Assembly: GCA_965198005.1 (NCBI GenBank)
Contig: CBDAOI010000002.1
Span: 672,001 to 736,000 of the forward strand
DNA from: Spirochaetia bacterium
GTDB lineage: Bacteria > Spirochaetota > Spirochaetia > SZUA-6 > Bin103
Length of the DNA stretch: 64,000 nt
Reading direction: 5' to 3'
Made by a program: the position numbers and the translations under genes. The notes beneath the pieces are model-generated. The model did no database searches and was not told where the DNA came from. It was given only the letters and a program-made list of their open reading frames with translations. Within the stretch, counting starts at the first letter, position 1, and each line of letters opens with the position of its first letter. Shown piece by piece: positions 18,909 through 60,527 of this stretch.

Positions 18909-19961
18909 TTACTTATAGGTCGAGCAGGCTGGACACGTGACAGCCTCCCCCGGATTACTTGCCGCGCGATGATAGTCTATGGCATCAAGACAACCGCTAT
19001 TGATCAAACCACTGACCTGATTCTCGAATGCTGCTCGATCAACAGCGTACATACCACCCCGTGCGCCTTCAAAACTGCAATTCCAGGCCGCAAGTGCTTG
19101 TCCATAGAGCAGAGCCGCGTGCACGCCGCGGGCACCGACCCGGCGTAGCCCCCTCTGCCCGCCGACAGACGTCTTAGCAATCAATCCTGCTGTGCACCAG
19201 TCGCCCGAGCCACAGGGATCGGCGACCCGTGGCACCCGAAAAGGCTTCTGATGCATCCACTTGGACACCCGGGCTCCCCGCCCCAGCCGATGGCGATACT
19301 TCAGACCTCGTTCTCCAAGCGTATGCACCTCAAGCAGTGGCCCAGACGCACTGTCGATCGAGCCCCAGATGTCAACCGGACGTCCGTGCGCATACTTCAC
19401 GACGTGGGCGAGTGAAATCGCCTCTGCCACTAACCTTCCATCTGCCCGTCCGGATGGTTCAAACACTACCACAGCCCCGTGAGACGACGCCTCGGCAGCC
19501 AGAGCAAGGATCGCACGCGACGGCCGATCAAAAAAAAACACTGACGCATCTGAGACTTCCGGCTTGACTCTCTCTGCCGAAGAAACCGTGATAGGCTTAA
19601 AACTCGGCAGCCTCTTACCGCACTGCGGGCACGACCAAGAAAAACGATGCCGTGGACGGCTGTCTCCCTCAAGTACTATTTCATGAACTACCATGGGCGT
19701 GTCACTGGTCGGAGCGCAGCTAGTCCAATCCAGGTGAACTCCCCAGCGCCCCATATCCCTACGAATCCGCTCCGAACCAGCGTCGCCCCTCATCCGCGCG
19801 ACCGGGTAAGCATCCCATCCAAGCCACGACAGAATGCACAATACATTCCCACAAGTTCCACCCGTCCAACAGCCAATGGGTACATCCGGCTGCCAACTAA
19901 TGACCACATCAAGGGCTATTAACCCTGTCCCATAAACTTTCGGGTGAGTAACTGAATTCAT
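18909..19961 (-). CDS. PfkB/ribokinase-family kinase with CxxC motifs
   Basis: GTGLIALD, GGTCGNV, signature DPCGSGDWCTAG; WSCPQCG insert and C-terminal CPAC. ATG 19961 overlaps the upstream TGA. Confidence 0.85.
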   Translation of the reverse strand: MNSVTHPKVYGTGLIALDVVISWQPDVPIGCWTGGTCGNVLCILSWLGWDAYPVARMRGDAGSERIRRDMGRWGVHLDWTSCAPTSDTPMVVHEIVLEGDSRPRHRFSWSCPQCGKRLPSFKPITVSSAERVKPEVSDASVFFFDRPSRAILALAAEASSHGAVVVFEPSGRADGRLVAEAISLAHVVKYAHGRPVDIWGSIDSASGPLLEVHTLGERGLKYRHRLGRGARVSKWMHQKPFRVPRVADPCGSGDWCTAGLIAKTSVGGQRGLRRVGARGVHAALLYGQALAAWNCSFEGARGGMYAVDRAAFENQVSGLINSGCLDAIDYHRAASNPGEAVTCPACSTYK

Positions 19962-21049
19962 ATTGTCGGGCGGCCCTCCGGATACACTTCGCCCTCCAAC
20001 CATAAATGTACGATACTTGGCTGAACAACTGTGTCCAGTACACTTTCCATCATGTCGTAGCCAATTGACTCAAGATAAGCCACGGGCAAGTCGCGCTCCA
20101 ACGCCGCCAGAAGAGCGCCAAGTGCCATCACTTTGCTGCCATGCGGGGAGAGAACGAGCATCGAACCTCCGGTCTCCGAGAATACCGCGTTCCGAAGGTC
20201 ATCTAGTCTAAGAAGAGTCCGATAGAGGTCCAACGGATCTCCCTCGTCGGCGTACACGATGTTGCGCGCATCGACCGACCATGTGTTCTCGAAGTCGGCC
20301 AGATATTCCTCCGCCAGCCTGTCGCCGAAACGAGGGTCTGTGGCTGGAAACGGAAGTATGGGGCACGTATCGTGAGGGTCAACGAAATCGTAGAGGCGCG
20401 TGAGTGCTCCCCGCATCCCAAAAGCCAGCTGTGGGAGCCACAACCGTGCCGCACCGCTGGCTTCAGAGAGAGTCGAGCGCCCCTTGAAACCATGAACGTA
20501 GGCCGGTACGTCGCCGGGGACTGGGCGTATCTTGTCATCAAGGAGTGGATCGTGAACAACGACTACATGTAGATTGGTCTGTCGTCCGTGCCGACCGATA
20601 AGCTCGACGAAGTAGCGAATTATGGGGAATATGGTGCCTGCGGACAACGCACTAATATCGACTACAATATCAGTTACACCATTCAGACTCTGTTGACGAA
20701 GGACGTTTATTATGTTCCGTCCTCCGACCACGGCACCGTCCTGCCCAAAGATGTCGATCGATGCGACTTGGGAGTCGGGGAGCACATTGAGAATGACGCT
20801 GGTGTTCTCGTTCGCCCGGTTGGATTGCCCCCGCGGCGGATTGGGGCGGTCCTCTCGGATCAACAGTGCACGTACATTGATCGTCTCATTGGCGAGCCGT
20901 TCAGCGACAATACATGATCGAGGATCGAACCCCGCGCCTGCGACAAGAAAGGCTAGGCGGTGGGGCTGGGCAAAGTAACGCGCGAGGAACCGATCGACGT
21001 CGTCCCCACTGTGGGCGACACAGGGATCCCAGTGGGATCGGTAGTCCAC
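19958..21049 (-). CDS. hypothetical alpha/beta Rossmann-like protein (possibly CARF-like)
   Basis: 363 aa; FLVAGAGFDPRS, IVVDISALS, LSPHGSKVMALGALLAA; operon-coupled. Confidence 0.7.
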   Translation of the reverse strand: MDYRSHWDPCVAHSGDDVDRFLARYFAQPHRLAFLVAGAGFDPRSCIVAERLANETINVRALLIREDRPNPPRGQSNRANENTSVILNVLPDSQVASIDIFGQDGAVVGGRNIINVLRQQSLNGVTDIVVDISALSAGTIFPIIRYFVELIGRHGRQTNLHVVVVHDPLLDDKIRPVPGDVPAYVHGFKGRSTLSEASGAARLWLPQLAFGMRGALTRLYDFVDPHDTCPILPFPATDPRFGDRLAEEYLADFENTWSVDARNIVYADEGDPLDLYRTLLRLDDLRNAVFSETGGSMLVLSPHGSKVMALGALLAALERDLPVAYLESIGYDMMESVLDTVVQPSIVHLWLEGEVYPEGRPTI

Positions 21050-21050
21050 T

Positions 21051-22952
21051 TCAGTCCTCGTCCATCAGGTTGATCAGATCATGGCTACGTCGCTCAAGGA
21101 AGCCGCCGCGCTTTAGCGTCAGTCCATGGTGAAGACGTAGTACACCGCCCAGCTCGATGAGGCACCATAGCCGTTTTTTTGTGCTGTGATTTGGGACCAT
21201 CACGAATGCGTTATAGGCGATACCAAACTGAAGCACCTGTGCTAGGTGTGGAAGATCTTGAGGAATGGTGTTGAACTCATCTTGTGGGATACCGAAGGCA
21301 GTAGCACCGCCGCGGAGTGACGCATTACCCTCTAGGCTTTTCGCGACGCATTCGGCGGCCATGCCGTCGGCTATCCGGCGGACAAATCGACATTGGGGGA
21401 AGCTCCACTCATCCACCATCTGTGTCGCACGTTCCCGGAGTAGCTTGTGTTGTAGACCGCTTGGGAGCGTGGCGTTCTTTCCGCGGATGAGCTGAGTCTC
21501 TGCCTGTGAGACGAGACGAGCGCAGAGCTGCAAGAACTGCTCAGCATTCTCCGAACTCGCGTCGCTCAAGGTGTCGATACCGAAAAAATACGGAAGTTCG
21601 TACTTATGCAACAAGTGGATGCGTGCTCCGTCGGCGACGCCAGAATCGACCTTCAGAGGTCGACTAAGCTCCAACATCTCTTCGTCGTCCACGAACAGAC
21701 TAGGTTGCACGCGATTAGCGTGACGCTCAAAAAGCACCGAAAGAATACCTAGCCTGAGGGCTTCGGAGCTCTCCCCGGTATTCGCGAGGTAATCGTCAAT
21801 CATTTTCTCAAAGCTGACACGACGCTCGTGTGGAACTCGGCGCTGACGCTGCAGGACATCGACTTCTTTTGTTAGTTGCTGGCGCTTACCGGTGGGGAGC
21901 TCCGCCGCCATGGTCGGCAGCAGATCACCGAGGCTGTTGAGACGACGGCGGTTGAACACCTCCATCTGACTCAGGTATCGCCCAGCCATATCTTTGGCCA
22001 TCGTACGAAACGCTCGCCGCTGTTTCGTACGATTTTCACCGCCCTGCATCCAGATGACCGTCATTTCTCGTGAGCGCTTGAGTGCGGACTCCTCGGAATC
22101 AGTAGTCTGACCCAGAAGCACGTCCCTTGGCGTAAGCGCATCGAGCCGCGTTAGTACCCATCTTGAGACCTTGAGGTCGCGCTGTGAAAGCCAACGCCAA
22201 AGCGCTAAGAGCTGACTGGGATGTAGACTATGTGCGTCGTCAAAGATGATTAGCGGACGGAGGTCCAGGGTATCCTGACGATATTTGATCCGGAATGCCT
22301 CAATGACGTCGAACGGTCGGTAAGCGGCGCTTGCCTCACGGTCGATACTCTCAACACCCGGCGGCAGGAGAGCAGCCGATATGCGATAGATTGCGCGCTC
22401 GACGATTCGGGCGCGCTCGCGCAAACCCGGTCCCTCTGTGCCCCCAATCTCGGTGAGTGCCGCGTCGGCATCGGAGCGCGGAATAATCTCGACTTGGTCA
22501 AGCGGCACTCCCGCCGCTTCGACGTTCCGAAGCCAAGCGAGTACGGAACGCGCCTGGAGAAGTTCGATCATCAGTCCTGTCTTGAGTTCATCAGTGTAAT
22601 CGAACTCCCAAAAATCCCGGTATTCAGCCTGGAGTGGGAGGCGAGCACCGATAAGAGTTGGCCGCTCCTCCTTAATCGCTCCGCAGTTCGTGAGTGTGTC
22701 AATTAACGGCCTATAGTTGGTCATCCCCCGATTACCTAACAATGTGCTCAGCGCTGTAAACTCGAAGAGTCGCGCCAACGTCGTCTTCCCGCTACCCGGG
22801 GTGCCGACAATCACTGCTAGTCGATCGTAGAGTCTCTCTTCTTTGGCCGGCTTCTGGAAAAACCTCGCGACTGGTTCTGGAGTGACCAAGGCGAGAAATG
22901 CCTCATCGTCCCGGAGGTATTCAGTCGCTCTTTTTTCAAACGGATTTGCCAT
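21051..22952 (-). CDS. P-loop NTPase (ORC/CDC6- or STAND-like)
   Basis: MANPF N-terminus, Walker A IVGTPGSGKTT, Walker B LIIFDDAH, long helical C-terminus; AGGGG RBS. Confidence 0.8.
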   Translation of the reverse strand: MANPFEKRATEYLRDDEAFLALVTPEPVARFFQKPAKEERLYDRLAVIVGTPGSGKTTLARLFEFTALSTLLGNRGMTNYRPLIDTLTNCGAIKEERPTLIGARLPLQAEYRDFWEFDYTDELKTGLMIELLQARSVLAWLRNVEAAGVPLDQVEIIPRSDADAALTEIGGTEGPGLRERARIVERAIYRISAALLPPGVESIDREASAAYRPFDVIEAFRIKYRQDTLDLRPLIIFDDAHSLHPSQLLALWRWLSQRDLKVSRWVLTRLDALTPRDVLLGQTTDSEESALKRSREMTVIWMQGGENRTKQRRAFRTMAKDMAGRYLSQMEVFNRRRLNSLGDLLPTMAAELPTGKRQQLTKEVDVLQRQRRVPHERRVSFEKMIDDYLANTGESSEALRLGILSVLFERHANRVQPSLFVDDEEMLELSRPLKVDSGVADGARIHLLHKYELPYFFGIDTLSDASSENAEQFLQLCARLVSQAETQLIRGKNATLPSGLQHKLLRERATQMVDEWSFPQCRFVRRIADGMAAECVAKSLEGNASLRGGATAFGIPQDEFNTIPQDLPHLAQVLQFGIAYNAFVMVPNHSTKKRLWCLIELGGVLRLHHGLTLKRGGFLERRSHDLINLMDED

Positions 22953-22964
22953 ATAACATGTCCC

Positions 22965-23929
22965 CTAAAGGTGTCGCTGGCGACGACGAAAGAGCGGGCG
23001 CATTCCTGGTGCTTGAATGTTGCCTCGAACCCCACCATCGCTCTCGGCCCAAAGCAGAGCAATCGCGTTGTTAGGCGTGTTGTGTGCGAGCACAAGAGGG
23101 AGCGCGCAGCCACCATAGCCAAGGCCTAGATGACTCACGCCGCCGATTTCGGTATGTTTCGTCTGGATTATCGGGTCGTAGTAGATCTGCGTGAGTCTTA
23201 TGAAGTCGTCATGCACGCCGGAACCAGCTCGAATCGGAAGTTCAGGCGGAAGCACCATGCCGAAGGAAGTCCGGGGAGTCTTCCTCCAGCTATCGGGGAA
23301 CGCGTCGCTCGCCTCTTTGAGACGCTCGCTGATTGCTCCTGCGGCTTCCGACGATGCTACATAGTGGTGCACGCAAAGCACCCAGTTATCCTCGAATAGC
23401 TGATCATCCGGAAGCGTGGCATTGGCGATTTCCACTTCACCTGAGTGACTTGAACGAATTGTTCGTTGGTAAGTAAGCCCGCATTCGCGTGGCGAATCGT
23501 GTCTATACGTGCTCCGTCGCTCAATCCCATGAATAGCGTCTGGCGGCGCAATCGCTCGGTGGCCGCGTGGGCGGCCGAGTCGGCGAGCACTCGATAAGGC
23601 TGAATGCCGTATTCGGCTGCGACAAGGCGTACTATATGTTCTCGGACAATGCGCGGATAGAACTGCTCCACGAGCCGCTGCATCTCTATCTGGCCGATGT
23701 AGACGAGGGAGCGACGCACGAAGGTGTAAGCGGTATCCCGCTCGTGTGCCTCGAACTGCTGGAGCCACGTGACCAAATTCTCAATAAAGCGCATACCAGC
23801 CTGGAAGGCTTGGTAGCCATCGTATTTTAGACGCGCCATCAGCTTCAGCCAAGCGAACTCTTGACGGGCTTGATAATCAGTCCAATTCATGATCTGGCCG
23901 AGGACTTTCAGACCAAGGTCCTGATTCAT
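22965..23929 (-). pseudogene. phosphoribosyltransferase-like (PRTase-CE-type) protein split by an internal deletion/frameshift near 23435
   Basis: N-part MNQDLGL...GLSDGARID...NEQFVQVTQV (ATG 23929 overlaps the upstream TGA) changes frame to C-part ...GYGGCALPLVLAHNTPNNAIALLW...RPLFRRRQRH. No DD-x-G PRPP loop in either part. Confidence 0.65.
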
Positions 23930-25869
23930 TCGAGTGATCCAGCCCCAAACCTCAGCCGGCCGTCTTGTACTTCTAGTGCCGAGAGATACTCGAACGTGAC
24001 GACCGGACCGCGCTGACCTGGCTGCCCCAGATGCCAACAGGTTGCGGGGTCGGTGCTGATTTCATCAACTCCGAGTGCAAACGGTTCGCTGAGCAACTCA
24101 TGGTCGTTGCCCGGCCAACGGCCGCGATCGCCGATCACGAGGATAGGCTCGTCGCCAACCGTCTCGCGTAGCCGTCTAACGACGTTCATCTTGGACACGC
24201 CGGGCGCAACGATATCCACCGAATGGCTGGAGCGGGTGACGGCGACTCCCTGGATGCCGGTTGTCCGGATCACTTGATGGGCGAGATCCCAAAGTCGACA
24301 CTCGCGCATGATCCTTGTGGCCTCAAGCGTGATTTGTAAGGGGCGCTCTTCCTGGCAGACGAATTCAGCAAGCTCTGGCTGATGGCGCAATGCGTGTGCA
24401 AGTGGCCGAAGGCAATCGTGGGCTCTCTCGGTTCCATCCGGCGAGTCGTTGTTATCGAGCGACGCGACTTCAGCGCCGTTGTAGTATCCAACGAGAATGA
24501 GAGGCCAGAGCGGGCGAGCAAGGCGCTCCTGAAGGTCGCGTCGGACCGATGCGCCGCGGCCAGTTGCGATCCCAATATACGCACCGGCGCTGGCTAGGCG
24601 AGCGAGTTCGGAGGCCATTTCCGGATCCACGGGTTCGGAGCGACGCCGGGTATCGACCACCGTTCCATCGTAGTCGAGAACGACTCCGGCGAATCGAGCG
24701 TCCCGCAAACGGGCAAGGAACGCGGTGAGCGCATCGTGCCAGCGGCCGATCTCCGTTAGCGTGGCTACGTTACTTTGATCGACGTTTGCTTTCCGCGCGA
24801 TCGCTGCGGACACACGTGGCGTAAGACGCGACGACCCGGTAGCGCACTTGGAGCGTGGGAGACTCAAGTTATAGAGTCTACGTCCGAACTCGGGGACGCC
24901 GGGACGTCCGGGGTCGATCCCCCGGATGCATCCAACCCATCCCGTGATCCTCAACGCTGCGAGCAGCGATGCAAGTGCTACTGCACTCGGCCCACCCTGG
25001 AAAACGATCCGTGCTTGGGGGACGCCGATGGGAATCAGGTCAAGCGTCCGCTCGGCGAGCACGCGATCCGCACTTGTGACGAAGGCGAGCACAGCGCTCG
25101 TGCCGCTGCGCTTGGCGAGCCAATGATGTCGTCCGTGGGCGAAGTTCCGGTAGTCGGCAAGCTGAACGTGGCCCAGCGCGGCCTCCGTAAACTTCGACTC
25201 GAGATCGATCGCTCCAATCCGCGTTGCAGGGCCATGAAGGACGAGTGTGGTGGGCCGCGTCCAGAGCGGAGCTGTGGTCGCTTCCCACGCTTCCAGGTCA
25301 GCGGTGGCATCCCGAAGCAGCGGCTTCAGTTGGTCCACCGTGTCCCGCCAACCCTTATGTGAACCGAACTCGGCAGCGTAGGCTCGGGTCAGAAGCGAGG
25401 TGAAGCCGAATAGCGAATTGGTGGCGAGGAAGCCGTCCTTGCCGGCGGGTGGTGGGTAGAGGAGCAGGTCGACGAATGCGTGCTGTCGGCAGAGGTTGAC
25501 CAAAGGACTGACCTCACGCCCGCATAGGACGGCGATCTGGCGCGGCTCACGTAGGATCAACGTCTCTGCCGCCGCCATGATGTCGTTGTTGCTCCCTCTA
25601 GCGCTTAGCAGCCATGTGGCGATGGTCGCATCGAGTGGCTCGTCAGTTGCGTCGAGCGGCGTGGCCACCGTGGATAGGAGGCCCGTGTAGCGCTGATGCA
25701 GACCGGCTAGCGCATGGGCACCGGTGAGTGATCCCCCGGAACCGATTACTCGAAGCGGCGAACGACCGGCGACACGAACGGCTTGTTGCATAGGCCGGAG
25801 GTCGGCTTCCTCTGCCCAAGCGAACGTCTCGGCCAGCATCGCCATCTCTCCCGTATATGGCCGTGCCAT
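23926..25869 (-). CDS. SIS (sugar isomerase, GlmS-like) plus HAD-IIB phosphatase fusion
   Basis: IGSGGS, LSARGSN, DGFLATNS, ESKFTEA...RNFAHGRH (tandem SIS); VVLDYDGTV, IATGRG, YNGA, VSK, IGD...GND (HAD motifs I-IV). Confidence 0.8.
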   Translation of the reverse strand: MARPYTGEMAMLAETFAWAEEADLRPMQQAVRVAGRSPLRVIGSGGSLTGAHALAGLHQRYTGLLSTVATPLDATDEPLDATIATWLLSARGSNNDIMAAAETLILREPRQIAVLCGREVSPLVNLCRQHAFVDLLLYPPPAGKDGFLATNSLFGFTSLLTRAYAAEFGSHKGWRDTVDQLKPLLRDATADLEAWEATTAPLWTRPTTLVLHGPATRIGAIDLESKFTEAALGHVQLADYRNFAHGRHHWLAKRSGTSAVLAFVTSADRVLAERTLDLIPIGVPQARIVFQGGPSAVALASLLAALRITGWVGCIRGIDPGRPGVPEFGRRLYNLSLPRSKCATGSSRLTPRVSAAIARKANVDQSNVATLTEIGRWHDALTAFLARLRDARFAGVVLDYDGTVVDTRRRSEPVDPEMASELARLASAGAYIGIATGRGASVRRDLQERLARPLWPLILVGYYNGAEVASLDNNDSPDGTERAHDCLRPLAHALRHQPELAEFVCQEERPLQITLEATRIMRECRLWDLAHQVIRTTGIQGVAVTRSSHSVDIVAPGVSKMNVVRRLRETVGDEPILVIGDRGRWPGNDHELLSEPFALGVDEISTDPATCWHLGQPGQRGPVVTFEYLSALEVQDGRLRFGAGSLE

Positions 25870-25984
25870 GGTCGCCTAACTGCCCTCCCAGGCTGTCCTC
25901 GTCCAGTGACGCACAAGATGGACACAGGATGGTGGAGTCTCGTCGCTCTTGCAAGGACAGGGAAACCGGACCTGCCTGGAGCAA

Positions 25985-26413
25985 ATCTCGCTGCGCGCGC
26001 CGGGCGTGACCCGCGCCCAGGTGGAGGCGGCGGCCGACGCGGTGGGCGCGACCCGGTTCATCCGCGCCCTGCCGCGCGGCTTCGACCACGACGTGCTGGA
26101 GGAGGGCAAGTCGCTCTCCTCGGGCCAGAAACAGTTGCTGGCCTTCGCCCGCGCCTTCCTGCTCGACCCCGGCGTGGTGATCATGGACGAGGCCACCGCC
26201 AGCGTCGACGCCGAATCGGAGCGGGTCATCGAGACCGCGCTCGACACTCTGCTGCACGGCCGCACCGCGATCATCATCGCCCACCGCCTGTCCACGATCC
26301 GCTCGGCGCAACGCGTCCCGGTGCTCCACCACGGCCGCCTGACCCCACGGCCGCTACGGTGCTGGAGGCCGGCACCCACGCCCACCTCCTGGCCCACGAC
26401 GGCGTCTACGCCC
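25985..26413 (+). repeat. island-flanking direct repeat, right copy (ABC NBD gene fragment)
   Basis: Encodes ...LEEGKSLSSGQKQLLAFARAFLLDPGVVIMDEATAS... identical to subunit B, with a ~20-bp insertion near 26342 causing a frameshift. Confidence 0.92.
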
Positions 26414-26641: not shown

Positions 26642-28831
26642 TCACGTCCGATCGTGGGGTGGTTCTACGCGCACGTCGGGCAGCCATGCCAGCCACGACG
26701 GCAGGTACCAGTTCCCGCGGCCCAGGATCTCCATGGTGGCCGGCACCAGGATCGAGCGCACCAGCGTCGCATCGAGCAGCACCGCGACGGCGAGCCCGAA
26801 TCCCACTTGCTGGTTGATGATGGTCTTCCCTGACGCGAAGGCGCCGAACACTGCGACCATGATCAGAGCAGCCCCCGTGATCAACCCGGCGGTGGAGCGC
26901 AGCCCATACGCTACCGCGTCCGCATTGTTCCCGGTCTGATCGTAGCGCTCGCGGATCCGGCTCAGCAGGAAAACATGGTAGTCCATGGAAAGACCGAAGA
27001 CGATGGCGAACAGGAACAGCGGGATCCACACGTCGATCACTGCGGCGTGTTGAAATCCCAGAAGGTCCGTCGCCATCCCCTTCTGAAATACCAGCACCAT
27101 CAGGCCGTAGGCGGTCCCAATGGACAGCAGGTTCATGAACACCGCCTTTATCGGGACCACGATTGACCGAAAGACAAGCAGCAATACCGCGAAACCGAGA
27201 CCGAGCACGAACGCGAATACGATCGGCGTGTACCTTTCCACTACGGCAAAAAGATCCGCGGTAACCGCGGTTTCCCCGCCAACGAATACTTCCGCCGAGA
27301 CGCCCTCGAATGCCGCCGGAATGTATTGCTCGCGCAGCACTGAAACCGCCTCGACGGTAGTGTGACTTCGCGGCTCTCCGGGAAGCGGGAGGGTCATCAA
27401 GGCCAGATCCCCGGAAGGGCCGTGTACGATGACCGGAGGTATGGGAAACCTGGCATCCTCGGTCAACGAGCTCGCCAGGCGTGCGATCGCCGCCTGCACC
27501 TGCGGACTGCCGAGGTCTCCCTCGATGACAATCTCGGCAGGATTGACCAGACCGAAAGAGAACTTCTCCTCCAGAACGAAGAAGGCTTCCTTGGTTCGAG
27601 CCCCGTCGGGGAACGTGTCCAACCCATTGATCCCCGTCTCTATTTGAAAGTAGAACAGCGTGCAGGCGACCATCGGACCGCCGATCGCGAGGATGCTGAC
27701 GATCGGGAACTTCGTTACGAGTCGCGTGGTTTTGCCCCAGAAACCGTCGGCCGCACCGTAGCCGCCAGCGTCGCTTCGTCTTCGGACGAAAGGGATCCTC
27801 AAGCGATCGATAGCCGGTCCCAGCAAGGCAAGCGCAGCAGGCAGCAGTGTCAGGGTGGCCCCGAGTGCGACCATGACGACCACAATGGCGCCGATGCCAA
27901 GCGACCGGAAGAACGTCGCCGGCACGATCAACATCCCGCACAGAGAGACGACCGTGGTGACACCGCTGAACAGCACCGTCCGACCCGCCGTTTCGCCAGC
28001 TCGGATCACCGCCTCGAGCTTGCCCAGGCCGCGGCTCAGCTCCTCTCGGAATCGCGATACCATGAGGAGCGAATAGTCGATCCCTACCGCCATACCGATC
28101 ATGCTCACCATCATCGTCACGAAGAACACCAACTGAAATGCCTGACCGATCAGCGCGACCATTCCCAACGCGACGATGATCGCCACGATTGCAAGCCCGA
28201 TCGGTAGCAGCGCGGCCACGATACTGCCGAAGAGCACGAGCAGAATGATCAGCGCCACGGGAAGGCCGAACCGCTCGCCCTGCTCCAGGTCATGTCTGCT
28301 CAGCTCGTTGGTCTCGAAGGCGATGCTGGCAGCTCCACCCATCAGCACGCGGAAATCATCTTCCTCGTCCGCCTTGGCGACGAGGTCCACGACCCTCGCG
28401 ACGTTCGCCGTAGCCTCATCGAAGTCGCCGGCCATGACCACCTGCACTATGGTGGTCTTGCGGTCGCGTGACACGAGAGTTTCGTCATTCGTCTGATAGT
28501 AATTCCGACCAGCGGCCACAACGCCACTTCCGAGCGAGAGGATCTCGGCGGAGATGGACTCGACCTTCTGTCGAAGCTCCGGGGCATCGACCGTGAGCGT
28601 GTCCGACTGTATCACGACCAGTTCGAGCATCGGTTTGCGCCCTCGAAGCTTTTCCTCCAGGAGTCGGGAAGCCACCGCGGACTCGGCATTCCCGGATAGC
28701 GTCAATTCCGTGGTGGTGGCGCCTGTAAGCATGGTCCGGATGAGAATCGCCGCAATCGCCACGAGCGCTATCCAAACGCCTATTGTGGCCCACGGCCGGC
28801 GCACACTGACTCGAGCCAAGAAAGCGGGCAT
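26642..28831 (-). CDS. MMPL-family (RND) lipid/terpenoid transporter
   Basis: Two TM blocks with GMAVGIDYSLLMVSRFREE and FGLSMDYHVFLLSRIRE, LDATLVR...VPA...NWYLP. Start 28831 or 28897. Confidence 0.92.
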   Translation of the reverse strand: MPAFLARVSVRRPWATIGVWIALVAIAAILIRTMLTGATTTELTLSGNAESAVASRLLEEKLRGRKPMLELVVIQSDTLTVDAPELRQKVESISAEILSLGSGVVAAGRNYYQTNDETLVSRDRKTTIVQVVMAGDFDEATANVARVVDLVAKADEEDDFRVLMGGAASIAFETNELSRHDLEQGERFGLPVALIILLVLFGSIVAALLPIGLAIVAIIVALGMVALIGQAFQLVFFVTMMVSMIGMAVGIDYSLLMVSRFREELSRGLGKLEAVIRAGETAGRTVLFSGVTTVVSLCGMLIVPATFFRSLGIGAIVVVMVALGATLTLLPAALALLGPAIDRLRIPFVRRRSDAGGYGAADGFWGKTTRLVTKFPIVSILAIGGPMVACTLFYFQIETGINGLDTFPDGARTKEAFFVLEEKFSFGLVNPAEIVIEGDLGSPQVQAAIARLASSLTEDARFPIPPVIVHGPSGDLALMTLPLPGEPRSHTTVEAVSVLREQYIPAAFEGVSAEVFVGGETAVTADLFAVVERYTPIVFAFVLGLGFAVLLLVFRSIVVPIKAVFMNLLSIGTAYGLMVLVFQKGMATDLLGFQHAAVIDVWIPLFLFAIVFGLSMDYHVFLLSRIRERYDQTGNNADAVAYGLRSTAGLITGAALIMVAVFGAFASGKTIINQQVGFGLAVAVLLDATLVRSILVPATMEILGRGNWYLPSWLAWLPDVRVEPPHDRT

Positions 28832-28865
28832 GGCTAAGCTCCTCCGGTGTGAAGTGTCTGATCGC

Positions 28866-30041
28866 CTACCACTTGCCGGACTCCTCTGCGTAAGCATGAT
28901 GCGGCATCGTGTAGTTGATCCCTTCCTGATCGAACGCCGAAACCTGGAGCAGTCCCATGAAGTCGGTCAGGTTGGTGTGTACTGCGAGCTTGGGAAACCA
29001 CTTGGCCATTACTCGGTGATAGCGAGTCTGCACGCGAAACCAAGGGAGAACTCCGAAGGTGAACGCCGGTGGATACCGAAGCTGGTCGGCAAGCGACTTG
29101 CCTATCAGCGAGCGAGAAATGAGGTACACGTACTTCGCCAGCCGTTTGCGGTCCCCCGGCTCCGTGTTGCCTACGAATATGGGGGCGGAGTTGACCAGAG
29201 AGTGGGATATGGCAATCGACTCCAGGTCGGCAGGGGGCTCGCACGCGATGCCGACTTCGAACAGCTTCAGGGCATCGGCTTCCCCTCTGAACAGCATGCT
29301 CTCGGGAATGCCCATCAGGAAACCGGCGTAACGCCAGACCTGCATGAAGCTGCTGCGTTCGCGGTCATCGAACACGCCGCCGAGCGACTTCAAGTGCTTG
29401 AGCAGGCGCGCCGAAAACGCAGTTAATGCGAAGCCCAGGTGCGCCGCGCTGATCGGCACACCCCAGGCTTCGGTATCCCAGTCGACGGCGTCCCGCAGCA
29501 GCATCCTGACCTGCGCGTGGATCAGACGAATGCGGACCGACAGCTTCCATCCATCGCCGAACCGTTCAAGTCCACCGGGAAGAAATATCTCCATCATGTG
29601 CCGGTTGTTCTGCTGCAGACGGCGGAGACCCTGGCTGCGCAATCGGCCGGTTATGAAGAACGACTTGCTGATGTTCGTGGTGAAGCCTTCGACCAGCGCG
29701 CCGCCGACCATTCCGGCCAGCACGAACCTCGAGTTTCGGTGAAACATGCGGATGCCGGGCATGAACTCCGCTTGATCCACCCAAGCAGGAGGAACCTCGA
29801 CCGCTTTGAAGAAATCTCTGACAATGGACGGAGCACCGCGGAGCGCGGGATCGTCCGGATCGTTCATCGCCGTACGCACGAGCCGTGCCGATTCTTCCGG
29901 CTGACGTGAGGCGAGGCTTGCCACCAACTCGTCCGCGGCGGGATCTCCGACGAGCGTGTGCGCGACGTAGTTCGATGCCATCTGAGCATCGATAGCGCAT
30001 GCGTTCTCGTAACCCGAGATGTAATCAGACGGCATGGCCAT
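28866..30041 (-). CDS. MpaB/Lcp-like (DUF2236) heme oxygenase
   Basis: GDPAAD, PPAWVD, RIRLIHAQVR (conserved His), WGVPIS, WRYAGFLMGIP. Confidence 0.85.
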   Translation of the reverse strand: MAMPSDYISGYENACAIDAQMASNYVAHTLVGDPAADELVASLASRQPEESARLVRTAMNDPDDPALRGAPSIVRDFFKAVEVPPAWVDQAEFMPGIRMFHRNSRFVLAGMVGGALVEGFTTNISKSFFITGRLRSQGLRRLQQNNRHMMEIFLPGGLERFGDGWKLSVRIRLIHAQVRMLLRDAVDWDTEAWGVPISAAHLGFALTAFSARLLKHLKSLGGVFDDRERSSFMQVWRYAGFLMGIPESMLFRGEADALKLFEVGIACEPPADLESIAISHSLVNSAPIFVGNTEPGDRKRLAKYVYLISRSLIGKSLADQLRYPPAFTFGVLPWFRVQTRYHRVMAKWFPKLAVHTNLTDFMGLLQVSAFDQEGINYTMPHHAYAEESGKW

Positions 30042-32262
30042 CGCTGGTCACCTCCTCGGCGCTAGTTTCGCCTGGACGCAGACAACACGCGTTCCGGCTT
30101 CCGGGGCGCCTGCGAATCTTTCGCGTGAGCGATCGGAAGAGCATCCTCAGTGCCGGGTCCGAGCCGGCCAGTGCGCTGCCGGCGATCATGGTCGCGCGCA
30201 CACTGCGGCGGGTGATCTTTACTTGGCTCGCCTCGGCAAAGTCCGGTTGGGCGTAGATGCGGCGGAGACTGAGCACGGCCATACCCAGCGCCCAGAGGCA
30301 GAATCGGCGGATGCCGGTCTCGCGGGCCGGAATGAGAAGGGTGAATCGCAACGCGTCCTCCAGATGCCGGGAGGCGACCGCCACCAGATCGAGCATCCCC
30401 GCGGCGAATCTGGGATCCGAGCGTCCGCTGGGCAACGATCGAAGTTCGAACCCGGTCGAGCGAAAGATGTCCTGCGGCAGCCAGCAAGACCCGACAAGAC
30501 GATCGGTCCACACGTCCTTGAGGATGTTGGTCATCTGCAATCCTTGGCCGAACGCGACCGACAGCCGGAACAGATCGTCTCGACGCTGGTTGATTTCGTC
30601 GGAGTAGTCACAGAACAGCTCGGTGAGGGTCTCTCCCACGACCCCGGCGACGTAATAGCAGTAGCGATCGAGGTGCGCCTGGTCGGCCAAGCCGCCGAGT
30701 GTCGCCATGTGCTGAAACTCCGCCATGCCGTGCGCCATGATGGACACGCAACGTTCCACGGCGTTGCGCTGAACCGGACGGAGCTGGTGCGTGATGCGGA
30801 CGATCCGGGGCGTATTGGCAACCAGATCCCGTTCGCTTGGCAGGGTTGCGGACGACAGCAGAGGATGAAGCTCGCGCGCGAACGACTCTGGCTCTTGGTG
30901 GCCGGTCACCACGCGGACCAGGCGGGACAGGAACTCCTGCTTCTGCGGCGCGGAAAGCTCCGGCTCGTCTTCGACCGTGTCCGCGATTCGACACAGGAGG
31001 TAGGTATTGCAGACGACCTGGCGTAGCTGCTCGGGTAGCTGGGGAATGGTCAGTGCGAAGGTCCGCGAGACACCCGGCAGGATTCCTGTCTGATAGGCGA
31101 TATCGTCGCTCGCCCGTTCTCGTAACGCTGCCGCTGCCGTTATTGCATTCCGCGTCGGCCGGTGGCAGGCGGGAAACGCCGAGTCGGCGTGCTTGAGTTC
31201 CGCCACTTGGTGCCGGAAGGACGCCGATTGGAGCACGGGCGCCTGCCGTAGTGCGGCCAACGAGGTTGCACCGCACAGCGTCATGGCGGTCCTCAGCTCA
31301 TGCTCGACCCGGTGGATCAGGGCCAGTGCGCCGTCGCTGCCGTCGGCCATGACGGCGCGGATGAAGGGAAGGGCCATGGCGCCGCAGGCCGCGCCCATCG
31401 CCACCGCCTTGGCCAGGTGCACCCCGTGACGCAGTCCGCCGGAAGCGATCACGCTGCCGGCCACGTCTCGGAGAAGCGCCAGCAGCACCCCGGTAGGCAG
31501 GCCCCACCCCGCAAACGTCTCGGCGCTCGCCTGGCGGCTCTCCGGCAGCCGCCGGCCCTCCACCGTTACCCAATTGGTGCCGTCGGCGCCGGCCAGATCT
31601 ACGTACTGTACGCCGCAGCCGAGCAGGGATCGCACCAGCCCCGGCCGAATCCCGAATCCGGTCTCCTTGACGATCACCGGCAGCCCGCACTCTCCGGTGA
31701 CGCGCTCGATGGCGCCCAACAGGCCACAGAAGTCACGGTCGCCGTCTGGCTGGAACAGCTCCTGACCGGCGTTGAGATGCACCACCAACGCCTGCACCTC
31801 CAGACGCTGCAGCACCCGGCGCACGGTGTGGACGTGCAGGTCGCGGAGTTGCACCGCCCCGAGGTTGGCCAGCACCGGCACGTCCGGCGCCAGCGGCTTG
31901 ACGTGGAAGTCCCCGAAGGTGGCCTCGTCCTGCAGCAGTGGGCGGATCGACCCCAGCCCTACGGCAACGCCCGCCCGCTGCGCGGCTGCGGCCAGCGCCC
32001 GGTTGGCGGATCGGCCGCGCCCGGACCCGCCGGTCATGCAGGAGATCATCAGCGGCAGGCGCAACGTTGCGTGCAGAAACGGTTGGGTCGTGTCCACCCG
32101 GGCGCTGTCCAACTCCGGCAGTGCCTGGTGCAGGAACTGCACCTGATCGAGGCTGGTGCCCATGGGTGCGGGATCGGGGTAGCGTTGATCGTCGAGACAG
32201 ATGTCGAGATGATGCTCCTTGCGGAGCGCAATCTCGGTGTCTCCGGAGCGTTGCGCAGTCAT
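30025..32262 (-). CDS. fusion: type-2 isopentenyl-diphosphate isomerase (Fni) plus squalene synthase (FdfT-type)
   Basis: IDI-2 motifs RKEHHL, MTGG, HLN..QE, KETGFG, SGGLR; then in frame VSRTFALTI, YLLCRIADTVED, YCYYVAGVVG, GLQMTNILKD, VKITR. ATG at 32262. Confidence 0.9.
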   Translation of the reverse strand: MTAQRSGDTEIALRKEHHLDICLDDQRYPDPAPMGTSLDQVQFLHQALPELDSARVDTTQPFLHATLRLPLMISCMTGGSGRGRSANRALAAAAQRAGVAVGLGSIRPLLQDEATFGDFHVKPLAPDVPVLANLGAVQLRDLHVHTVRRVLQRLEVQALVVHLNAGQELFQPDGDRDFCGLLGAIERVTGECGLPVIVKETGFGIRPGLVRSLLGCGVQYVDLAGADGTNWVTVEGRRLPESRQASAETFAGWGLPTGVLLALLRDVAGSVIASGGLRHGVHLAKAVAMGAACGAMALPFIRAVMADGSDGALALIHRVEHELRTAMTLCGATSLAALRQAPVLQSASFRHQVAELKHADSAFPACHRPTRNAITAAAALRERASDDIAYQTGILPGVSRTFALTIPQLPEQLRQVVCNTYLLCRIADTVEDEPELSAPQKQEFLSRLVRVVTGHQEPESFARELHPLLSSATLPSERDLVANTPRIVRITHQLRPVQRNAVERCVSIMAHGMAEFQHMATLGGLADQAHLDRYCYYVAGVVGETLTELFCDYSDEINQRRDDLFRLSVAFGQGLQMTNILKDVWTDRLVGSCWLPQDIFRSTGFELRSLPSGRSDPRFAAGMLDLVAVASRHLEDALRFTLLIPARETGIRRFCLWALGMAVLSLRRIYAQPDFAEASQVKITRRSVRATMIAGSALAGSDPALRMLFRSLTRKIRRRPGSRNACCLRPGETSAEEVTSDGHAV

Positions 32263-32266
32263 TCCC

Positions 32267-33544
32267 TCACCCGCCCCGGAGCCCATACACGCGGTACCCG
32301 TCGGCACGAACCTCCTGCAAGTAGAAGCTGCGCGCGGGGATCTCGGTCTCCAGCGGCCCCCCATGACCGGGCGCAGTACTGCGACGGCCGGCGACCCATG
32401 CGTCGTAGTCAGCCATCGATGCCTCTTGGCCGTGGTTCAGCAGGTGGTCCAGGGACCAGCCGCGAATAACCGCCGGAGCCTGCCGGCTCACGCGTCCGGA
32501 AAACGCCAGCGCCGTGTTGCCGGAACCGTAGGCTGCCATGGTGATCCGCTTGCCCACCACGGCGGATTGCAGTTCCCGGCAGCGTGCCGCCAGCAGCGCC
32601 GCCAAGCTCAGGAACATCGCTCCGGTGTACACGTTGCCCACCACCGCCGCCGGTTCGGTTCCGGCCTTGAAGTGACGCCGCGCCAGAAAAGCGCTGGTGG
32701 CGGCGGAGTCCGTGCCCAGATAGCGCTGCACCAGATCGGCCATGGTTTCCTCCGGCAGCGAACGAAACGGCACGTGCAACGCGAACAGATCGGTCTCCAC
32801 CAGCAACTCCGGCATGCTGCGCCCGGTGCGGGCGCACAGATCGAGCAGCGCCTCCTCGACCGTGGTCTGGTAGCACTCGATGGAGAAGCGGCCCTTTACC
32901 TGGGCCGTAAGCGATCCGAGGGGGCGAAAGAAGTCGTCTACGTCGTGCGAGGAATAGCCTACCTCTCCCAAGTCAATGGCAAGCAGGCGCGGCGCGGGTT
33001 CGGCCAGGATGGCCACCGCCGCCGCACCCTGCGTGATCTCCGCCTTGCTGCCCGGCGCGTAGCGCGCTTCGTCGGTGCAGATGATCAGACCGCGCTCCCC
33101 ACCGGCACGACTCGCGCCCAGCATGGCGCCCACGCTCAACAAGGCGATCGCACCGCCGGCGCAGGCGTGTTTGACGTCGAAGGTGGAGATCGCTTGGGAA
33201 ATCGGAAAGCCGGCACGCTGCAGCATTCCGTGGACGTAGGCGGCAATCGGCTTGGCTTGGTCGATGCCGGTCTCGGTGCCCACCACCAAGTAGCGCAACG
33301 AGGCGACGGCGGCGGCATCCAGCCGTACCAGGAGTTGAGCCGCCGCCTGCGCGGCCATGGTCGCAGTGTCCTCCCAGCAATGCGGGAAGCGGATCGACAC
33401 TTGGCCGGTTCGGCCCCGTGCGCGCTCCAGCGCAATCGCCCGCTGCGGGTCCTGCCGCCGGTGACGTGCAATGATCGTATTGAGCGGTATTTTTGGTCGC
33501 GGGATGTGAACGCCGATGTCGCCGATCCCGAGTGTCGCCTGCAT
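32267..33544 (-). CDS. mvaS: hydroxymethylglutaryl-CoA synthase
   Basis: EDTATMA, GTETGID, KHACAGG (catalytic Cys), EITQGA, DFFRP, HVPF, GNVYTG, YGSG. Confidence 0.85.
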   Translation of the reverse strand: MQATLGIGDIGVHIPRPKIPLNTIIARHRRQDPQRAIALERARGRTGQVSIRFPHCWEDTATMAAQAAAQLLVRLDAAAVASLRYLVVGTETGIDQAKPIAAYVHGMLQRAGFPISQAISTFDVKHACAGGAIALLSVGAMLGASRAGGERGLIICTDEARYAPGSKAEITQGAAAVAILAEPAPRLLAIDLGEVGYSSHDVDDFFRPLGSLTAQVKGRFSIECYQTTVEEALLDLCARTGRSMPELLVETDLFALHVPFRSLPEETMADLVQRYLGTDSAATSAFLARRHFKAGTEPAAVVGNVYTGAMFLSLAALLAARCRELQSAVVGKRITMAAYGSGNTALAFSGRVSRQAPAVIRGWSLDHLLNHGQEASMADYDAWVAGRRSTAPGHGGPLETEIPARSFYLQEVRADGYRVYGLRGG

Positions 33545-33668
33545 CAATGAAACCCGCCGCCCGTTAGTCCCATGCCATTCAAATCTCCCTCCAAACAGAG
33601 TGAAAAACAAAACACTGTTTGTCAACAAAAATGCGTAGCCTCGGGACACATTTTTGGGTCCATACAGG

Positions 33669-33696
33669 TCGGGAATTCGGGTGTACGTTTCAGGAA
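33669..33696. promoter_or_regulatory. putative LytTR binding repeat upstream of the terpenoid operon
   Basis: TCGGGAA (33669) and TCAGGAA (33690), 21 bp apart; more copies nearby. Confidence 0.5.
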
Positions 33697-33846
33697 GTTA
33701 CTCTAGCTCATATTCCCGTTCTTCAGGTTCCTGAATTGATGTTTTGTTCCTGGTATTGTCTGTTAACTTCGGGAAACCGGGACGACCACAAACCGGCGGC
33801 GCGAATTCGCTCGACGGATCTGAAAAGCGATTGGAGAACCCGCGAA

Positions 33847-34941
33847 TTACTCTACCGGCGAGCTACTCGAGCGAGCCTCGCCTTTCTGCGCTGCGGAATT
33901 CGACGATTTTTCAATGAAGTCACGAACGGCGGGAAGAAATGGGTGGCTTACCGGTATTTCGTAACCGTCGGTAAGGCACAGCAGCATCCGGTGATCGCGT
34001 CTCACCAGATGCCGGATGTGCCGAGACGCCACCCAGTAGGATCGATGAATCCGCATCCCGCAATCGCCGAGTGCGGCGACCGCGTCCGCCAGCCGCATCA
34101 AGACGACGACCGAACCGGACGTCGTGACCACTTCAAGGTAGTGCCCGGACACGTGTACGTATACGACATCCTGCCCCACCGGTTCCGGCAGGCTCTCCAG
34201 GAGCCGCTGCGCTTCAACCGGGCGGATGTGAAGCGCGGCGTGTCGCGGCTGCTTGCCCTCGACTGCGTCGTCGCTGTCGCGATGCGCATCAGCATCCGGT
34301 TGCTGCGCGTCCGCTGAACCACTCGAATCGTCAACGGTTGCCCGCTCGCCCTTGTCGGCGAGTCCCTCCGCGGGTCCAGGGAGAGGAATCTCGTCACCGT
34401 TGGTGTCCTGACGATCAGCGGAGGAGCCTGCAGATACATCGTCCGGAGCAGGTTGAGCGGGGGTCGTGCTGTCCTTGAGAGCAAGCAGGTCGCGACGGCC
34501 GAGACGCAGCAGGAGCACGTAGAATATCAGCGCCGCGGTCCAGAGCAAATTCATGGCGTTTGCGACGTAGAGCTCCAGCATTCCGTCACCGGGCGCGCGG
34601 CCCTCGTGCAGCAAAGCATACCCAGCGTACATGATCGCGGTGCAGAGTACAGCCACAATCGGAGCGGCAACTGCAAGTACCGCCATGCTCTGGAACTTTG
34701 AGCGGAACCTCGACAGATAGAGCAACAGGGCACCACAAGAGTAGCAAATGAGCAGGTCCGAGCAGCCGACGAAAACCGAGAATCCCAGGCGCTGGAGCGC
34801 GCTCATCGTGTGCGTCAGGTCCATAGGGTCCCACAACGTGAACAACGCCGTGAGTACTACGATGATGGAGAGAGCAAGCGGGAGCATGCTCAGTTTCAAT
34901 AGCTCTTGATACGCGTAGCGCATCTCCACATGGCGGTTCAT
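33847..34941 (-). CDS. membrane-anchored LytTR-family transcriptional regulator
   Basis: Four N-terminal hydrophobic helices, a low-complexity linker, and C-terminal LytTR (HYLEVVT...MRIHRSYWV...EIPVS). Confidence 0.85.
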   Translation of the reverse strand: MNRHVEMRYAYQELLKLSMLPLALSIIVVLTALFTLWDPMDLTHTMSALQRLGFSVFVGCSDLLICYSCGALLLYLSRFRSKFQSMAVLAVAAPIVAVLCTAIMYAGYALLHEGRAPGDGMLELYVANAMNLLWTAALIFYVLLLRLGRRDLLALKDSTTPAQPAPDDVSAGSSADRQDTNGDEIPLPGPAEGLADKGERATVDDSSGSADAQQPDADAHRDSDDAVEGKQPRHAALHIRPVEAQRLLESLPEPVGQDVVYVHVSGHYLEVVTTSGSVVVLMRLADAVAALGDCGMRIHRSYWVASRHIRHLVRRDHRMLLCLTDGYEIPVSHPFLPAVRDFIEKSSNSAAQKGEARSSSSPVE

Positions 34942-34954
34942 ACATCACTCCCAT

Positions 34955-35045
34955 TCGGGGACTCTACCGAGCAAATCAGGAATACAGGAATAGCGGGCGA
35001 CATGACTCGACTAATTCGGGAATCCGGGTCCCGAGGAATCGGGAA
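34955..35045. promoter_or_regulatory. putative LytTR autoregulatory repeats
   Basis: TCGGGGA (34955) and TCAGGAA (34976), 21 bp apart; TCGGGAA at 35016 and 35039. Confidence 0.5.
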
Positions 35046-35369
35046 TTGCTTGGATACCACTCATCATTCTCATTATTGACGATGCGACACGGATCGTCAA
35101 TAGCGCGCACTGCTCTTGCTTCATTGCTTCACCCGAAATCTACACGAACGGAACTTGCGTACCACCTCTGTCTCTGTCGATAACCTGCCGGACCACGATC
35201 AATCACCGGCAGGCACGGTAGAATGCAGCATGAGTCGGCACATTCACTCCGTGACACCCAAGACGACGCGATTCGATGCACGGGCATCCTCCAATGCCCG
35301 GCACTTTCGGGGCAGTGACCGGTTCGGATTCGACGCGCCCGATTGCCTGGGCCGGCGCAGCGGATCCTG

Positions 35370-50788: not shown

Positions 50789-50953
50789 GTAATACTCGGC
50801 GCCTACTCGGCGCTGCCCACCTCGCCCGGCACCGCGGCGAGCATGGCCAGCTACGTTGCCGGATCGTGGTTCAGGTCATGGACGATACAGATCCTGGAAG
50901 ATACATATCGCAGATCGCCTACGATAAGCGAAACCGGGGGCGTGCGTCAATCC

Positions 50954-51750
50954 TCATTCGTAGCGAATCCGCGGGTCCAGCGACGCGTACAGCAGATCGG
51001 TCAGCAGGTTGACGAACACCACCACCGTGGCGAAGAACAGGTTCACCGCCGACACCACCGGGTAGTCGCGGTCGTTGAGCGCATCCAGCATCAGCCGCCC
51101 CAGCCCCGGCAGGTTGAAGATGTTCTCGATGATCACCGCGCCGCCCACCAGGATCGGGAGCTGCATGCCCACCAGCGTCACCACCGGGATGATGGCGTTC
51201 TTGACCGCGTGGCGCAGGATCACCGACCGCTCCAGCAGCCCCTTGGCCCAGGCGGTCCTGATGTAGTCCTGGCGCAGCACCTCCAGCATCATGGTGCGCG
51301 TCATGCGCATGGTGCTGGCCGCCAGGTAGGTGCCGAGGATCATCACCATCGTTCCCAGCCAGAAGTTGGGCGTCGCCAGCCCCATGATGGCCACCGACCG
51401 TCCCACGTAGTCGGCGGCGGTGTACTGGCGCACCGCCGAGTAGATGCCCACCGGCAGCGCGATGACCAGGCCGATGAGGATGGCCAGCAGCCCGAGCTCG
51501 GCGGTGACCGGCAGTCGTCCCAGCATGCGCTGCTTGATCCGCCAACCGCCCAGCAGCGACTCGCCCAGGGTGCCGCGCAGGAGGATGCCGCCGATCCACC
51601 GGCCGTACTGCACGTGGACGGGCACGTCCAAGCCCAGCATATGCTCCAGCGCCTCACGGTCCATCTTGCCGGCCATCCCGTCAACCCTCAGCGCCATAAC
51701 GCCTATTACATCGCCGGGGAGGAAGCGGACGGAGAGAAAGACTATGATCG
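50954..51750 (-). pseudogene. peptide ABC permease (DppB-like), 5'-truncated and internally deleted
   Basis: Paralog of 59556-60512 that lacks the N-terminus and the YPAIW...PSL segment (reads MVMI-LGT). Confidence 0.8.
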
Positions 51751-60512: not shown

Positions 60513-60527
60513 AGGAAAATAACGAGT

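Follow-up and report, generated by a model that had tools for sequence, protein, structure and literature searches.

A spirochaete terpenoid gene cluster that joins squalene synthesis to an Lcp/MpaB-fold haem oxygenase and a lipid exporter, with a probably new reaction

The stretch of DNA analysed here (the window) comprises 64,000 nucleotides of a Spirochaetia bacterium (assembly GCA_965198005.1, contig CBDAOI010000002.1, positions 672,001 to 736,000 of the forward strand), and its subject is a block of five co-directional minus-strand genes that fills positions 26642-34941. These genes code for a LytTR protein with four transmembrane (TM) segments, an HMG-CoA synthase (HMGS), a fusion of type 2 isopentenyl diphosphate (IPP) isomerase and squalene synthase (IDI-2::SQS), an oxygenase of the Lcp/MpaB fold and an MMPL exporter (Table 1). 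Pfam models were matched by LytTR (E 2e-14), by both the N and C parts of HMG_CoA_synt, by MPAB_Lcp_cat (E 1e-18) and by MMPL (E 1e-80), and the FMN_dh and SQS_PSY domains lie inside one open reading frame (ORF). The original prediction, made from the letters alone, had described five co-directional genes, and all five ORFs were indeed found on the minus strand at that place. With starts corrected by reference to the sequence and to the homologue, gaps of +4, -17 and +37 bp separate the last four genes: the fusion begins 4 bp past the hmgS stop, the oxygenase start lies 17 bp inside the end of the fusion, and mmpL most likely starts behind a GGAGG site, at the same place as its homologue in locus L009. 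The original prediction had these four genes overlapping or nearly touching; with the corrected start, mmpL begins 37 bp past the oxygenase stop and does not overlap it.

Table 1. Features of the block in window coordinates; for each gene the higher coordinate is the likely start.
Feature	Position	Strand	Basis
Membrane-anchored LytTR regulator (lytTR), 4 TM segments and C-terminal LytTR domain	33847..34941	-	PF04397, hydropathy, dN/dS 0.35
HMG-CoA synthase (hmgS), second copy in the genome	32267..33544	-	TIGR01835, E 2e-77, below cut-off
IDI-2::squalene synthase fusion, 745 aa	30025..32262	-	IDI-2 at about 32223-31228, SQS at about 31077-30205
Cytoplasmic globin-fold haem oxygenase, Lcp/MpaB/TAO (DUF2236) family	28866..30041	-	PF09995
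MMPL-family RND lipid exporter (mmpL), 728 aa	26642..28828	-	PF03176 in two stretches; 12 hydrophobic segments
Sigma-70-like promoter upstream of lytTR; a 13-bp inverted repeat overlaps it	35072..35102	-	Consensus match only, 10/12
Candidate operator upstream of lytTR: three TTCCYGA boxes, two forming a direct repeat 23 bp apart	34976..35045	-	
Candidate operator upstream of hmgS: TTCCYGA boxes, two of them directly repeated at a distance of 21 bp, and one further box on each strand	33669..33775	-	

The whole block recurs with 81% nucleotide identity over 6.9 kb in another genome (G018, locus L009, titled Spirochaetia bacterium), which belongs to the same family and another genus and in which the flanks of the block differ. 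Between the two spirochaete copies dN/dS was 0.15-0.35 for all six coding units; the five genes are real and under purifying selection. Among 40 relatives searched, the oxygenase and the SQS were each present only in G018, so the block is accessory. In the window it is bordered on one side by a duplicated ABC-gene end (18400-18812 and 25982-26413, 93%) and on the other by restriction-system remnants. Fragments of hmgS, the fusion and mmpL with about 90% identity occur in a run whose label is sponge metagenome, and a metagenome scan with the fusion as query returned 34 matches to IDI-2 and one to SQS. There was no RNA run among the listed holders of cluster pieces, which says nothing on expression; the plasmid collection gave only distant homologues, with at most 31% identity among the matches listed, and atlas searches returned the same family identities for the cluster proteins and nothing further.

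The cluster HMGS is 51% identical to the second HMGS of the host, which adjoins a carotenoid cluster. The IDI-2 part of the fusion scores 320 bits against the NCBIfam model IPP_isom_2 (TIGR02151; cut-off 281 bits), as a type 2 IPP isomerase should, and is 79% identical to the stand-alone IDI-2 of the host. At about 31585 (fusion residue 226), its glycine-rich loop has an Asp in 9/9 fusion clusters, where the host stand-alone enzyme has Gly. A read-through artefact can be dismissed for the fusion, because both domains occur together in nine protein clusters (69-100% identity). When compared with solved structures, the SQS domain matched squalene synthases best (E 1e-21 to 1e-15, and 1e-6 for CrtM), and its flap, two Asp-rich motifs and YC..VAG.VG segment could be aligned to the human, trypanosome and fungal enzymes and are kept in 15 rows. 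The best head-to-head model was squal_synth (TIGR01559), which was built on eukaryotes and gave 113 bits against a cut-off of 287, scanned bacterial relatives scoring alike. The domain is 50-65% identical to stand-alone SQS proteins adjoining the oxygenase in other phyla, and its relatives are fused to squalene-hopene cyclase (SHC), DXS or Nudix domains at 50-56% identity and to IspH at 60-62%. Elsewhere, fusions of this subfamily with a second SQS, IspH, SHC, DXS, Nudix or farnesyl diphosphate (FPP) synthase were noticed (P0272, P0287, P0308, P0320, P0334, L049). Judging by these motifs and matches, the SQS domain very probably makes squalene. Its motifs and best PDB matches are those of single-step synthases of the FDFT1 type, and across loci SQS is interchangeable with HpnCDE beside the oxygenase; unlike either of these systems, the spirochaete SQS is fused to a host-derived IDI-2 and feeds no cyclase in its genome.

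The host genome (G000; 4.9 Mb, 90.4% complete) contains an HMG-CoA reductase adjoining three GHMP kinases, a stand-alone IDI-2 and three polyprenyl synthases, and DXR was not found in it. Because the reductase, the kinases and IDI-2 are present and DXR is not, the host uses the mevalonate pathway. A genome-wide search of the same assembly found no squalene cyclase, epoxidase (PF13243, PF08491) or HpnE, so that the SHC or oxidosqualene cyclase and the squalene epoxidase that mark hopanoid or sterol clusters were not found there; nor is there a cyclase, epoxidase or desaturase in the block, as had been observed in the original prediction. On contig C3 there is, apart from the block, a C40 carotenoid cluster equipped with a CrtB and a CrtI of its own. 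This cluster (L003 10294-17037) comprises CrtE, CrtY, CrtI, CrtB, a methyltransferase, a second oxidoreductase, a Rieske/DUF5914 protein and HMGS, and presumably resembles an actinobacterial isorenieratene cluster. With a CrtI in the genome and a Pfam family common to both kinds of synthase, the SQS domain could instead make dehydrosqualene, from which the host CrtI would complete a C30 carotenoid. We consider this extremely unlikely, given the SQS-type flap and second Asp-rich motifs, the best matches to squalene synthases, the relatives fused to SHC, the interchange with HpnCDE, and the CrtB and lycopene cyclase that the carotenoid cluster has of its own.

The oxygenase scores 68 bits against PF09995 (cut-off 23 bits) and therefore carries this domain. 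Its AlphaFold2 model (pLDDT 89) superimposes on the latex clearing protein LcpK30 (5o1l) with Z 30.9 and rmsd 3.3 over 338 aligned residues; the next fold match is t-anethole oxygenase (8s1j; Z 19.7, 262 aligned), and ordinary globins reach Z 8. Sequence identity to t-anethole oxygenase and Nro1 is 9-11%. Pairwise and 63-row alignments place His175 on the Lcp haem ligand His198, where it is invariant (63/63 rows), and Arg141 on Lcp Arg164, kept in at least 90% of the rows; Arg172 (Lcp Arg195) and Arg179 (Lcp Arg202) are kept as well, and Lcp Lys167 is replaced by Gln. The accessible parts of two studies describe R164, T168, H198 and E148 as important in Lcp (PMC5522427, PMC6311187), and since T168 and E148 are replaced here, the protein is a member of the superfamily and not an Lcp. 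Hydropathy revealed no TM segment, and inspection and hydropathy, used in place of a dedicated predictor, showed no twin-arginine (Tat) motif or hydrophobic N-terminal segment. The subfamily is large: of 8000 candidates that were scored, 2723 proteins reached E 0.001.

Compared with LcpK30 (5o1l/5o1m), the oxygenase is alike in fold, proximal His, the equivalents of Arg164/195/202 and, probably, isoprenoid substrate class, but differs in the exchanges Glu148 to Ile, Thr168 to Asn and Lys167 to Gln, in the Tat peptide, of which none was seen here, and in its context, which is rubber-catabolic for LcpK30 and consists here of biosynthetic and export operons. The mycophenolic acid enzymes MpaB' and PgMpaB are likewise PF09995 proteins from a biosynthetic cluster; as far as the available text of their descriptions goes, they cut the terminal farnesyl double bond to an aldehyde (10.1101/524025; PMC6900556). 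The bond is trans-farnesyl, and squalene has two such ends. MpaB, likened here by description only, differs in that MpaB' is bound to the endoplasmic reticulum and acts on a farnesylated phthalide, whereas the spirochaete enzyme has no TM segment and its cluster no polyketide synthase or aromatic prenyltransferase. t-Anethole oxygenase and Nro1 belong to the same superfamily, and Nro1, in the portion of its report at hand, cuts the C=C bonds of nitrile rubber (PMC12724181); both are catabolic and act on non-terpenoid substrates, unlike the oxygenase of this cluster.

A survey of species-representative genomes yielded 75 loci of the oxygenase subfamily, mostly 37-61% identical, in nine phyla, and neighbourhoods of 8 kb were inspected. 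Squalene genes were nearby in 37 of the 75 loci (21 with SQS, 16 with HpnC/D/E and none with both), the HpnD and HpnE matches being above the NCBIfam cut-offs. These 37 loci correspond to 34 genomes and the other 38 to 36 genomes searched, as two share a genome or isolate already counted. In the 36 genomes without adjacent genes, HpnE was found above cut-off in 22 and SQS in the other 14, none having both and none neither, and a squalene route is therefore encoded in 70/70 carrier genomes examined. As a control, 301 evenly drawn Acidobacteriota genomes were used, of which 13 have the oxygenase (12 close, 1 distant). The squalene route was present in 13/13 carriers versus 133/288 non-carriers (Fisher p 6e-5, with kin that are not independent), and squalene genes lay within about 10 kb in 8 of the 12 non-centre carriers. 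The SQS profile included two Acidobacteriota sequences, first found with an outside query, and one genome flagged unpublished (G114) contributes one count to the background of 146/301. At the level of genomes the oxygenase depends on a squalene route. Adjacency, the 70/70 genomes and the Acidobacteriota control lend good support to squalene, proposed in the original prediction, as the oxygenase substrate, and we regard this assignment as likely. The mutual exclusion of SQS and HpnCDE beside the oxygenase (Fisher p 0.004) was set aside as a specific signal, because the phylum control showed that such exclusivity is general.

Where squalene genes adjoin the oxygenase (34 genomes), no cyclase-domain match was obtained in 25 and a canonical SHC in one; in the rest, the cyclase matches were divergent but full-length (three genomes), weak (four) or, in one genome, a 186-bit match within a long frame. 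In one module genome, a cyclase domain (G058:C1:101646-102620) is part of a 1267-aa open frame, possibly an epoxidase-cyclase fusion. Since 25/34 are without a cyclase, squalene needs another sink in these genomes. Of the 16 genomes tested that have no squalene genes next to the oxygenase, 8 have SHC; in hosts that lack a hopanoid pathway, squalene genes tend to come with the module. The original prediction was not refuted by the conservation check proposed together with it: the genes recur side by side, and a hopanoid cyclase is missing from most genomes in which squalene genes adjoin the oxygenase. The SHC in those 8/16 genomes, among them Chloroflexota with the closest oxygenase-MMPL pair, would also suit the export of squalene itself or of a later lipid such as a hopanoid, with the haem protein acting on another prenyl substrate or trimming excess squalene. 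Symbiont-derived squalene synthase transcripts in a sponge, mentioned in the accessible part of PMC9426513, and the acceptance of various farnesylated aromatics by PgMpaB, according to the available text of PMC6900556, point the same way. We find this explanation distinctly unlikely: the spirochaete host and most carriers of the adjacent type are without a cyclase, prenyltransferase or aromatic-core genes do not recur in the loci, and a separate role of the haem protein is at odds with an oxygenase start that overlaps the synthase end and with an oxygenase that usually heads the exporter operon.

An RND or MMPL exporter was encoded within 8 kb in 59/75 loci (47 sterol-sensing RND, 8 MMPL, 5 AcrB), and loci with the sterol-sensing RND usually also carry a LolA-like protein and a DUF1302-like barrel. 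The spirochaete MMPL is 59-68% identical to MMPLs adjoining the oxygenase in Chloroflexota, and its oxygenase nests with Chloroflexota sequences that are also beside an MMPL (SH-aLRT 95 and 98 in a quick tree of 80 rows, from which matches shorter than 300 aa or with stops were dropped). As IDI-2 is host-like, SQS resembles that of other phyla, the oxygenase nests with Chloroflexota and the MMPL resembles theirs, the cluster is a mosaic. In Tepidiformaceae (L011-L014), two tandem oxygenase paralogues stand behind the MMPL and an SHC is found elsewhere in the genome. Hopanoid and sterol clusters with RND exporters (HpnN, BstA, MmpL) share squalene synthesis and an RND/MMPL exporter with the spirochaete cluster, which has an Lcp-fold oxygenase instead of their cyclase or epoxidase; the HpnN and BstA models score far below cut-off on the spirochaete exporter.

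Genes for precursor supply were found within 8 kb in 23/75 loci (IspH 18, DXS 6, FPP synthase 2, HMGS 2, IDI-2 1). Such booster genes appear to follow the host, being mostly enzymes of the methylerythritol phosphate pathway and, in spirochaetes, mevalonate enzymes, the pathway having been checked in the G000 host only. The cluster is not a one-off and is better described as a lineage-adapted build of a module spread over nine phyla, and we take many of the carrier names to be those of lineages of sponge symbionts. In the cultured Thalassobaculum litoreum DSM 18839, the oxygenase (49% identity), a sulfotransferase and hpnCDE are in one run, and no cyclase match was obtained. Half of the loci have no synthesis genes nearby, and Lcp and Nro1 are degradative in the accessible portions of their descriptions, so the oxygenase and transporter might form a catabolic pair for uptake and breakdown of host or environmental squalene or terpenoids, as Lcp does with rubber. 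Co-location with synthases and the flux boosters listed above, a biosynthetic route in 70/70 genomes and the failure to find recurring beta-oxidation genes around the 75 loci make this highly unlikely.

The scheme that we prefer combines these elements. The extra HMGS and the fused IDI-2 would raise the flux through the host mevalonate pathway, FPP would come from the host prenyl synthases, and the SQS domain would join two FPP to squalene. The haem oxygenase would bind O2 and cut a trisubstituted C=C bond of squalene, most likely the terminal isopropylidene bond, yielding acetone and a C27 aldehyde, or a C24 dial if both ends are cut; housekeeping enzymes may then turn the aldehyde into an acid or alcohol, and the MMPL would carry the amphiphilic product across the inner membrane. 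A dedicated lipid exporter would fit a large amphiphile better than a volatile C8 or C13 ketone. For the operon as a whole, that is, squalene synthesis, O2-dependent cleavage, probably terminal as in MpaB', and export of a C27 (or C24) apo-squalenoid, we rate the chances as about even. If squalene is the substrate, cleavage is the outcome that the characterised relatives make reasonably probable, and if there is cleavage, analogy with MpaB' tips the balance slightly towards the terminal position.

Several observations weigh against this scheme. In the alignments, Ile124 takes the place of the Lcp catalytic base Glu148, and Asn145 that of Thr168, which hardly varies among Lcps; both replacements are invariant in the subfamily, and the identity to Lcp is as low as 16-18%. 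A nearly invariant Glu118 might serve as a substitute base. Moreover, 38/75 loci are without a nearby squalene gene and 16/75 without a nearby exporter, squalene routes are a common background in Acidobacteriota (146/301), where SQS and HpnE are generally exclusive (1 overlap), so that their exclusivity beside the oxygenase is not specific, two Acidobacteriota have close SQS homologues and no oxygenase, and the carrier genomes are related and not independent. Finally, a gene for processing the aldehyde is absent from the spirochaete cluster, and candidates are sporadic over the 75 loci (Mo-aldehyde oxidoreductase 9, SDR 4, P450 4, sulfotransferase 7).

Because of the change of Glu148 to Ile, oxidation of squalene without cleavage, to an epoxide, allylic alcohol, diol or hydroperoxide that is then exported, remains a viable explanation. 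The exchange of Thr168 for Asn throughout the subfamily favours it too, as do the sulfotransferases, which need a hydroxyl and follow the oxygenase in 7/75 loci including that of T. litoreum, and the evidence for linkage to squalene fits it equally well. However, the described members Lcp, MpaB and Nro1 cleave C=C bonds in the accessible accounts, an alcohol can also arise by reduction of the aldehyde, as stated for the PgMpaB products in the available part of PMC6900556, and most carrier genomes contain no oxidosqualene-cyclase-like partner; we therefore hold uncut oxidation to be unlikely, though deserving real weight. With respect to the apo-terpenoid of the original prediction, comparative genomics speaks for its substrate and its export, while cleavage is extrapolated from four characterised members and the Lcp Glu is replaced. 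A role as host-directed metabolite is possible, and a homologous module is also present in a free-living relative that is in culture.

Regulation of the operon was approached through TTCCYGA boxes in its two promoter regions. LytTR proteins bind direct repeats about two helical turns apart, and candidate repeats with this spacing, as expected of a LytTR-regulated operon, are seen in the sequence at both promoters. Pairs 19-24 bp apart occur only three times in the 4.9 Mb, two of them in these regions. As the motif had been defined on these regions and the L009 repeats, it was tested on independent paralogue loci: in relatives, a co-oriented box lies within 250 bp upstream of 6 of 11 paralogous TM-LytTR genes (0.04 expected per locus), often in arrays and often 19-21 or 41-42 bp apart. 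Some of these loci are orthologous, and reduction gave 3/7 (p 0.001). No box was found upstream of the other 5/11 or of the second TM-LytTR locus of the host, and the lytTR-hmgS spacer is too diverged from the second genome for footprinting. The TM-LytTR family was matched in 8 of 14 genomes from the same taxonomic family, as often as 14 times in a single genome, and lytTR is a recruited host regulator. An expansion of the 4-TM family was noticed in genus g1 (L153-L163), with TTCCYG(A) arrays upstream of many members and arylsulfotransferases among the neighbours. The LytTR protein probably controls the operon through the TTCCYGA direct repeats, and would bind them and switch the operon in response to some membrane-side cue. 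Autoinduction, proposed in the original prediction, is unsupported, since a LytTR adjoins the oxygenase in 2/75 loci and the paralogues are expanded in relatives without the cluster.

A second copy of the cluster lies at G000:C4:331700-334800 (L001 9700-12805), with a fusion protein that is 100% identical. In this copy lytTR and the 5' part of hmgS are deleted, hmgS has further deletions at microhomologies, and the oxygenase is cut after 73 codons. It is preceded by what seems to be the 5' portion of a gene for a MocR-type regulator and followed by IS110 and reverse-transcriptase genes, and its 33240/35055 joint is also present in runs of two studies. Next to the block, between the ABC gene end and its 93% duplicate, a low-GC block on the minus strand (window 18909-25869) codes for a SIS/HAD protein, a split PRTase-CE, an ORC-CDC6-like ATPase, a protein of no assigned family and a PfkB kinase, and looks like a conflict or defence system. 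Repeats at 50943-51342 and 60400-61450 have very many diverged copies on all four contigs.

We found no description of the module in the literature searched, although subscription journals, mostly outside the search, and unread supplements may hold one, and no paper in that literature links an MpaB oxygenase with squalene. To our knowledge, no bacterial squalene-cleaving enzyme has been identified. The accessible text of PMC10070321, PMC7074536 and PMC9426513 describes sterol and terpene clusters of sponge symbionts and, to that extent, not this module. A link to sponge isoprenoid acids of the trimethyltetradecanoic type was sought and not confirmed, and no argument here draws on it. Squalene epoxidase is inhibited by C27 analogues of squalene. 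By its structure, the proposed C27 acid is presumably turbinaric acid. The excerpt of PMC9074775 presents turbinaric acid as a cytotoxic brown-alga constituent.

In summary, this is a terpenoid biosynthetic cluster composed of known families with a probably new reaction, and the module suggests that squalene has, beyond hopanoids and sterols, a fate not yet described. The genome-level dependence and its control, the mevalonate-adapted IDI-2::SQS build, the candidate operator and a cultured test organism are new here; because T. litoreum has a homologous module, the question is directly testable. More tentatively, and with more doubt than confidence, this might be a third bacterial fate of squalene: a horizontally shared module of nine phyla, common in sponge-symbiont lineages, that cleaves squalene by a base-free variant of the Lcp mechanism, with the first squalene-cleaving enzyme to be identified, and secretes seco-squalenoids. 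These would either target the animal host, its sterol pathway for instance, or make up a surface lipid of the symbiont. As part of that doubtful reading, the products might be a C27 aldehyde or acid of the turbinaric-acid type, C24 bola-amphiphiles, or alcohols or sulfates of these. If true, an oxygenase subfamily that is large and unstudied would gain a substrate, squalene chemistry would gain a regioselective biocatalyst, the presence of squalene genes in many cyclase-less marine and symbiont genomes would be explained, and sponge-type symbionts would be seen to have a chemistry in common. The spirochaete version, for its part, looks like a foreign module rewired to a new host, with boosters from the host's own pathway, a new IDI-2 fusion, a native regulator with candidate operators, and a single-membrane exporter that it shares with Chloroflexota.

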